A stretch of 64,000 bases of DNA from Escherichia coli 042 (GCF_000027125.1 NC_017626.1); one strand, 5' to 3'; positions 41,211 to 41,747 are shown, counted from the first letter of the stretch. Numbers and translations: made by a program. The notes: generated by a model from the sequence alone, not told the origin.

Positions 41211-41377
41211 TGTTCTCTTCTTCAGGTTAAAAAATAAGGCGCAACGAAGATAACAAACCGCCGCGTTTAATGAAATGAGCAGCCTCTCCGTGACGCAAAT
41301 TTTGCACAAAAAATAGGCTTTAGTGATTTGTTTTTGTTCAAAATCATGCCAGAACCGTGATCGGGGTAAAAAAAAGG

Positions 41378-41405
41378 TTGCATGAAAACGCGAGCGGAGT
41401 ATAGT
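41378..41405 (+). promoter_or_regulatory. Sigma70 promoter of the tRNA-fMet operon (-35 TTGCAT, 16-bp spacer, -10 TATAGT, GC-rich discriminator, upstream A-tract)
   Basis: Read directly, 14-41 bp upstream of the first tRNA. Confidence 0.6.
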
Positions 41406-41418
41406 GCGCATCCACGGA

Positions 41419-41495
41419 CGCGGGGTGGAGCAGCCTGGTAGCTCGTCGGGCTCATAACCCGAAGGTCGTCGGTTCAAATCCGGCCCCCGCAACCA
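41419..41495 (+). tRNA. metZ: Initiator tRNA-fMet (CAU), copy 1
   Basis: Exact match to the E. coli initiator tRNA sequence CGCGGGGTGGAGCAGCCTGGTAGCTCGTCGGGCTCATAACCCGAAGGTCGTCGGTTCAAATCCGGCCCCCGCAACCA. Confidence 0.95.
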
Positions 41496-41528
41496 ATTAA
41501 AATTTGATGAAGTAAAGCAGTACGGTGA

Positions 41529-41605
41529 CGCGGGGTGGAGCAGCCTGGTAGCTCGTCGGGCTCATAACCCGAAGGTCGTCGGTTCAAATCCGGCCCCCGC
41601 AACCA
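41529..41605 (+). tRNA. metW: Initiator tRNA-fMet (CAU), copy 2
   Basis: Identical 77-nt sequence after a 33-nt spacer. Confidence 0.95.
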
Positions 41606-41639
41606 ATCAAAATTTGATGAAGTAAAAGCAGTACGGTGA

Positions 41640-41716
41640 CGCGGGGTGGAGCAGCCTGGTAGCTCGTCGGGCTCATAACCCGAAGGTCGTCGGTTCAAAT
41701 CCGGCCCCCGCAACCA
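41640..41716 (+). tRNA. metV: Initiator tRNA-fMet (CAU), copy 3
   Basis: Identical 77-nt sequence after a 34-nt spacer. Confidence 0.95.
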
Positions 41717-41724
41717 ATTATTGA

Positions 41725-41747
41725 ACACCCTAACGGGTGTTTTTTTG
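41725..41747 (+). terminator. Rho-independent terminator of the tRNA operon
   Basis: acaccc-taac-gggtgt hairpin followed by T7. Confidence 0.7.

Follow-up and report, generated by a model that had tools for sequence, protein, structure and literature searches.

The three tandem initiator tRNA genes between mltA and amiC as the metZ-metW-metV operon of Escherichia coli

Three tandem tRNA genes lie between mltA and amiC in the 64-kb stretch of DNA that was analysed here, which is referred to as the window. The array is almost certainly the chromosomal metZ-metW-metV operon of E. coli, with an rRNA-P1-type promoter, a hairpin terminator and an old triplication that has been kept similar by purifying selection. 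The operon supplies most of the initiator tRNA (tRNA-fMet1) of the cell. The operon, its promoter, its regulation and the island site at metV are all textbook or published knowledge; the feature is already known, and metZWV as it is found here is ordinary and of little import in itself. The features of the locus and the basis on which each of them was assigned are shown in Table 1.

Table 1. Features of the metZWV locus, with positions counted from the first nucleotide of the window.
Feature	Position	Strand	Basis
mltA, divergent upstream neighbour	40113-41210	-	Annotation of a genome with a 100% identical locus; Pfam MltA and 3D domains
A8 tract just upstream of the -35 hexamer, resembling the proximal subsite of an UP element	41368-41375	+	Sequence; run of 5 to 8 A here in all 21 Enterobacterales loci aligned
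-35 hexamer TTGCAT, 3 of 6 consensus matches	41378-41383	+	Sequence; TTGCA(T/A) nearly invariant across genera
-10 hexamer TATAGT	41400-41405	+	Sequence; GAGTATAGT kept from Escherichia to Dickeya, Tatumella, Serratia and Yersinia
GC-rich discriminator GCGCATCC, likely start A41414 and 5-nt leader ACGGA	41406-41418	+	Layout as in rrnB P1
metZ, tRNA-fMet1 (initiator, CAU)	41419-41495	+	ARAGORN; Rfam, 61.4 bits; K-12 annotation b2814; initiator bases C1xA72, A11:U24, G29-31:C39-41 and G46
Internal transcribed spacer 1, 33 nt, ATT type, unstructured	41496-41528	+	Sequence; fold
metW, tRNA-fMet1	41529-41605	+	ARAGORN; Rfam; K-12 annotation
Internal transcribed spacer 2, 34 nt, ATC type, unstructured	41606-41639	+	Sequence; fold
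metV, tRNA-fMet1; 3' end is the junction that holds islands in other strains	41640-41716	+	ARAGORN; Rfam; K-12 annotation
Intrinsic terminator: stem GAACACCC/GGGUGUUU, loop UAAC, then UUUUGUUUCU	41723-41752	+	Terminator scan; fold; conservation
amiC terminator hairpin, bidirectional in shape	41761-41790	-	Fold; directly after the amiC stop codon
amiC, convergent downstream neighbour	41791-43044	-	Annotation of a genome with a 100% identical locus; Pfam AMIN and Amidase_3 domains

Identity of the array and its neighbours

Exactly three tRNA genes were identified in the window by ARAGORN, all of them tRNA-Met(CAT) on the plus strand. The metZ, metW and metV genes are 77 nt each and mutually identical, and each of them scores 61.4 bits against the Rfam tRNA model in cmscan, where the gathering score is 29. 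The genes exhibit the CAU anticodon (position 35, ARAGORN) and an encoded CCA end. The D stem has the A11:U24 pair, which is a defining feature of initiator tRNA. The 1:72 pair is flagged as non-standard by cmscan and is the C1xA72 mismatch that has been described as an initiator tRNA feature (PMC8860583). The anticodon stem consists of GGG/CCC at positions 29-31:39-41, and such a set of three consecutive G:C pairs is given as a defining initiator feature in passages of PMC3017606. Position 46 is G in the genes of the window; the same passages assign G46 to tRNA-fMet1 of metZWV and A46 to metY of K-12.

The arrangement is also that of the metZWV operon, where three tandem genes occupy the mltA-amiC interval with a single promoter and a single terminator. 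In K-12 MG1655, whose metZWV region is 99% identical to that of the window, metZ, metW and metV (63.5 min) are annotated as b2814-b2816 between mltA and amiC. The K-12 sequence equals that of the window from the A-tract (41368) to the terminator hairpin except in spacer 2, which is 33 nt in K-12 and 34 nt in the window owing to one extra A in the latter. A few substitutions between the two are found farther upstream and just beyond the terminator.

The mltA/amiC synteny around the initiator array is kept across Enterobacterales. The genes within about 5 kb of the array are all core genes according to annotation and Pfam (gcvA, ygdI, csdA, csdE, tcdA, mltA, amiC, argA and recD). The region was matched in 5425 of the 5426 complete E. 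coli genomes and is 100% identical to many chromosomes, with at least 99% identity over 631 bp in only 742 of the 5425 genomes.

The same initiator hallmarks are shared by metY (tRNA-fMet2), which lies upstream of nusA-infB and was not found by ARAGORN in the 64-kb window. The passages of PMC3017606 that concern metY describe a single gene at another locus that in K-12 differs at one base (A46, not G46) and that is under the control of CAP and ArgR instead of ppGpp.

Two kinds of candidates that overlap the array were rejected. The mechanical ORF calls at 40113-41492 (an extended call), 41267-41455 and 41474-41776 are spurious. The minus-strand match to the Rfam family AaHKsRNA82 at 41714-41791 scores 28 bits (E = 0.19), below the gathering score of 51, and is simply the terminator region.

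Promoter, terminator and processing of the transcript

The assignment of the promoter to the stringent, rRNA-P1 type is well supported because it resembles rrnB P1, is conserved in 21 species and belongs to an operon for which ppGpp control and promoter mutants have been published. The rrnB P1 promoter as read from K-12 is TTGTCA-16-TATAAT-GCGCCACC-A, and the metZ promoter is TTGCAT-16-TATAGT-GCGCATCC-A. Both promoters exhibit a non-consensus -35 hexamer, a sub-optimal 16-bp spacer and a GC-rich discriminator that begins with GCGC directly 3' of the -10 hexamer. Both promoters also exhibit a discriminator length of 8 nt, an A nine bases past the -10 hexamer and A/T-rich DNA upstream of the -35 hexamer. 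The A8 tract of metZ is short compared with the full UP element of rrnB P1, and we infer from its sequence that it would act as an UP element. Transcription probably starts at A41414 with a 5-nt leader because the layout is analogous to that of rrnB P1.

The upstream alignment was constructed from 21 orthologous regions that include those of Escherichia, Citrobacter, Salmonella, Klebsiella, Dickeya, Serratia, Yersinia, Tatumella, Edwardsiella and Xenorhabdus. Within this alignment, conservation extends to the A-tract, TTGCA(T/A), GAGTATAGTGCGC and the leader, and 19 of the 21 species have the GCGC discriminator. The stretch of 16 nt that separates the two hexamers is free to vary in sequence and constant in length.

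Passages of PMC3017606 cite Nagase 1988 for the mapped start site of metZWV and for its down-regulation by ppGpp. They also report two promoter-down mutations that lower tRNA-fMet1, one within the -10 hexamer and one just upstream of it. The K-12 operon to which the reported ppGpp control applies is identical to that of the window from the A-tract through the promoter and the array, save the one A in spacer 2.

No promoter was called by a generic sigma-70 scan of 41000-42000 that demanded at least 4 of 6 matches per hexamer. The metZ site has 8 of 12 matches overall and was missed because its -35 hexamer has only 3 of 6. The miss was rejected as proof that a promoter is absent; conservation and the published mutants decide the matter. 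The metZ promoter, a sigma-70 promoter of rRNA-P1 type, would yield a single polycistronic RNA of about 340 nt. The promoter design would lead to a short-lived open complex, with an output that tracks growth rate and is shut off by ppGpp/DksA.

Farther upstream, about 100 bp from the likely start, the segment at 41304-41318 (GCACAAAAAATAGGC) is a perfect match to GNNYAWWWWWTRNNC, which we take to be the Fis consensus, and it is named here as a putative Fis site. Its A5 core stands out in the upstream alignment of 21 species as the one further patch with strong conservation. The putative site might just as well be part of the mltA promoter, which is divergent.

A hairpin at 41723-41742 followed by TTTTGTTTCT was identified by the terminator scan, with an 8-bp stem, 4 G:C pairs and a T-run. 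The fold of this terminator has an energy of -11.1 kcal/mol (z = -4.35), and none of 200 shuffles is as stable. The ACACCC-N4-GGGTGTTTTTTT stem directly 3' of the last gene is invariant in Citrobacter, Klebsiella, Salmonella, Dickeya, Serratia, Yersinia and Edwardsiella and its loop is variable, which is the pattern expected for a functional structure. The transcript would end at this conserved hairpin and its U-run. The amiC hairpin folds at -12.3 kcal/mol on the minus strand and at -7.9 kcal/mol (z = -6.9) on the plus strand, and it could serve as a second stop for metZWV. If transcription ran on to this amiC-side hairpin, the transcript predicted from promoter to terminator would grow to about 380 nt. 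The full-length polycistronic metZWV precursor that has been reported on northern blots is longer and was sized at about 500 nt (PMC10710024).

The metZWV operon has been classed as RNase P-dependent (PMC7049720), and a one-step RNase E cleavage after CCA has been proposed and is unproven (PMC8860583, PMC5291269). GGA is found at -3 to -1 of almost every gene copy in every species examined, and CCA is followed by A and a pyrimidine in most Enterobacterales copies. These conserved bases before the gene and after CCA would fit processing signals. The precursor would be cut into three identical tRNAs, where RNase P forms the 5' ends next to GGA, and RNase E would probably enter, and may cleave, at the A/U-rich stretch right after each encoded CCA.

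The structural description of the locus in an earlier note on this DNA agrees with these findings. Its three identical 77-nt tRNA-fMet genes are recovered by ARAGORN and Rfam with the initiator hallmarks, and its near-identical spacers of 33 and 34 nt are distinguished by a T/C substitution and by the indel of one A in an A run. Its reading of the promoter as an A-tract, TTGCAT-16-TATAGT and a GC-rich discriminator is exact, with the rrnB P1 architecture and the conservation in 21 species behind it. The strong terminator that it named has the fold energy and the stem conservation across genera described above, and mltA and amiC are confirmed as flanks by the annotation of the 100% identical locus and by Pfam.

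Spacers and age of the triplication

Species representatives were scanned for adjacent initiator genes, and 31 loci were identified. Most of those tested show mltA and/or amiC flanks and are therefore regarded as orthologous. Almost all gene copies in the 31 loci share one and the same 77-nt tRNA sequence, even in Marinobacter, Ferrimonas and Xenorhabdus, in a set that is biased to conserved tRNAs since the pattern demanded exact tRNA ends, although it constrained no other part of the gene.

The identity of genes and spacers was read in the earlier note as a sign of ongoing concerted evolution, where frequent gene conversion or unequal crossing-over in the array would uphold the near-identity. 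The findings in this work do not bear out that reading, which we consider unlikely. The identity of the copies within one genome is uninformative because genomes as distant as Marinobacter and Ferrimonas have the same 77 nt, and identical tRNA copies are no evidence for concerted evolution where the sequence is frozen across a whole bacterial class. Spacer 1 starts with ATT and spacer 2 with ATC alike in Escherichia, Citrobacter and Klebsiella. Each spacer of the window is one edit from its orthologue in another genus, whereas the two are two edits from each other. The mean distance is 2.4 for spacer 1 against spacer 1 between genomes and 3.6 for spacer 1 against spacer 2 within genomes, in a small sample with small distances. 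Paralogues that are closer than positional orthologues, as concerted evolution predicts, were found only in C. amalonaticus and Atlantibacter subterranea and not in the window. Spacer 1 is invariant in all three-copy Escherichia arrays that were read, and Escherichia spacer 2, of the ATC type, has acquired lineage-private changes that are never found in spacer 1. In two Citrobacter and two Klebsiella species, the T-stem pair G52:C62 has become A:U, a compensatory change that is confined to copy 1 and has not spread to copies 2 and 3. The positional markers, the edit distances, the invariant spacer 1 and the private changes of spacer 2 together argue that no homogenisation is ongoing in E. coli.

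The evidence on the side of concerted evolution comes from variation in copy number and from a few spacers. The comparison of copy number across strains that the earlier note had proposed gives three copies as the overwhelming majority state in E. coli, with one or two copies in 226 of about 3,470 empty-site genomes. Clean sequence was confirmed for EcPNK004 (one copy), IAI39 (two copies with an sp2-type spacer) and strain 300444 (two copies with an sp1-type spacer), and repeat collapse might account for some of the low-copy assemblies. In E. albertii, the two copies are separated by a chimeric sp1/sp2 spacer. Homogenised-looking spacers are found in C. amalonaticus, in Atlantibacter subterranea and apparently in E. 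whittamii, and in Franconibacter pulveris the 40-nt spacers of two separate loci are identical. Three synthetic queries were also searched. With a three-copy sp1/sp1 query, the search joins overlapping pieces of two-copy arrays; with an sp2/sp2 query, no perfect three-copy sp2/sp2 array was found in E. coli; with a four-copy query, only three-copy genomes are present among the top matches.

A recent, lineage-specific amplification of a single initiator gene would also account for identical copies, nearly identical spacers and a copy number that ranges from 1 to 4 among strains and genera. This explanation is extremely improbable, as Escherichia, Citrobacter and Klebsiella all have, at one shared mltA-linked locus, three-copy arrays with the ATT type of spacer 1 and the ATC type of spacer 2, and three copies are by far the commonest state in E. 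coli. The markers shared between genera could derive partly from horizontal exchange of the array, and whole-array transfer between genera is possible, as judged from the Escherichia sp. MOD1 locus. On the comparison of these sequences, the similarity of the spacers is explained by slow evolution under constraint. The triplication is almost certainly old, with purifying selection on the tRNA and the spacers and with occasional loss or homogenisation of units by unequal recombination. The spacers have orthologues position by position and behave as functional elements that are conserved.

The conservation of the spacers fits known functions, namely processing and the binding of Hfq and RybB. Both internal spacers of metZWV co-purify with the sRNAs RybB and MicF (PMC4583644), and weak in vitro binding of Hfq has been reported for the metW-metV spacer (PMC10710024). 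Duplexes of the RybB seed (nt 1-23) with the spacers, over their conserved 3' two-thirds, have energies of -15.8 kcal/mol for spacer 1 and -16.5 kcal/mol for spacer 2, which are reached by only 15-19 of 500 shuffles and give modest support for complementarity. The MicF-spacer duplexes are no better than shuffles. Both unstructured spacers would be expected to bind Hfq and the sRNA RybB as well. Salmonella arizonae and diarizonae have a different spacer of 28-29 nt, so the constraint on the exact spacer sequence is clade-specific. The 3'ETS-leuZ sponge (Lalaouna et al. 2015; PMC4583644) is likewise a transcribed tRNA spacer that is bound by Hfq-dependent sRNAs. However, 3'ETS-leuZ is a 3' external spacer, whereas the metZWV spacers are internal and their regulatory effect is putative. 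If the spacers are dosage-relevant RybB/Hfq sponges, the natural variants with one or two copies would alter both the initiator supply and the buffering of envelope-stress sRNAs.

Two further arrays were recorded. The ST648 genome NZ_CP008697.1, which is designated as complete, has no tRNA-fMet1 gene annotated at the metZWV site; a single N replaces the whole of metZWV at an assembly gap, and the genome was rejected as a natural loss of the array and treated as an assembly artefact. In Franconibacter ('Enterobacter') pulveris, one contig has both a metY-like and a metZ-like locus, each with two tandem initiator genes, and the 40-nt spacer that they share suggests conversion or duplication between the loci.

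The metV-amiC junction

The junction between metV and amiC is a polymorphic hotspot and a known island site. With a junction-balanced query, 3461 of the 5425 genomes (64%) are contiguous like the window. In about 36% of E. coli genomes the match breaks directly after metV, at window position 41717/18 or 41725. Among the occupied alleles are a five-gene PTS/sugar cassette after metV, a T6SS island together with the same five-gene PTS cassette in ST131, and a cob/cbi cluster after the array in Escherichia sp. MOD1. The T6SS island after metV is a named island, PAI-metV/ETSS2 of ExPEC (PMC3573123, PMC3032704). This island (CFT073, ST131 and strain W) uses exactly the junction of the window, directly 3' of metV, and is absent from the window itself. 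The occupied alleles that were examined have no integrase beside the tRNA and no duplicated tRNA end, and the native terminator is replaced in them by their own hairpin.

The window does not exhibit any of the three marks of a tRNA-linked island, which are an integrase, a distal repeat and atypical composition or accessory genes. No integrase or transposase domain was identified by Pfam in the genes within about 5 kb of the array. The annotation of strain BUCT2930 likewise shows no integrase over the co-linear region; outside the locus, this genome has only about 98% identity to the window, with indels in the first 5.4 kb or so. Repeats of the tRNA 3' end were searched with 25 nt at up to 3 mismatches and with 16 nt at up to 2 mismatches, and the matches in the window are the three genes themselves only. 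The base composition shows no anomaly, with a GC content of 0.50-0.55 around the array. The earlier note had stated that no mobile DNA is attached to the operon, with no integrase within 5 kb, and had named an att site as something to look for on re-inspection. The statement is true of the window, where neither an integrase nor an att-like repeat was found, but it describes the state of a strain only, as about 36% of genomes carry cargo after metV. Cargo occupies this hotspot in about one third of E. coli genomes, and the island-free junction is one of its alleles.

The empty junction of the window is the ancestral state, since its flank is common to outgroup genera with amiC adjacent. It is very unlikely that the junction is empty secondarily, through the loss of a former island by precise excision or deletion. 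Such a loss is consistent with the proportion of E. coli genomes occupied at the junction, with the island-type flank of E. whittamii and with the nested occupied states (PTS only; T6SS and PTS), which suggest stepwise gain or loss. However, ACACCC-N4-GGGTGTTTTTTT followed by amiC is also found in E. albertii, Citrobacter, Salmonella, Dickeya, Yersinia and Franconibacter. The occupied alleles have another terminator and have lost the window-type terminator, and the window is without a scar, an att-like repeat or a GC anomaly.

A mixed array was identified in Escherichia sp. MOD1-EC7003, where MltA is 100% identical to the protein of the window and spacer 2 and the 3' flank are similar to those of Klebsiella spallanzanii, with cob/cbi genes next to them. 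This array indicates a recombination breakpoint inside the tRNA array, in spacer 2. We tentatively raise the idea, which is more doubtful than probable, that the initiator array serves as a conserved anchor for homologous recombination, and less as an integrase att site, so that strains, and even members of different genera, exchange whole segments through it, the terminator of the operon included. Possible examples of such exchange are the PTS cassette, the T6SS island and the cob/cbi cluster.

In E. coli ST131 strain 4993, tssM (ImcF-family) of the metV T6SS island is split by ISEc12, and the five-gene PTS cassette is located between the T6SS and amiC.

Two other variable regions were observed in the window, far from the array. 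The mazE-mazF toxin-antitoxin genes are absent at 5265-5359, where 95 nt separate mazG (4473-5264, minus strand) from relA (5360-7594, minus strand); strain BUCT2930 has about 690 bp with mazF and mazE between mazG and relA. The region at 1-1300, upstream of eno, is a variant ygcG region with two genes annotated as 'TPM domain-containing protein', and it is at least 80% covered in only 782 of the 5425 complete E. coli genomes.
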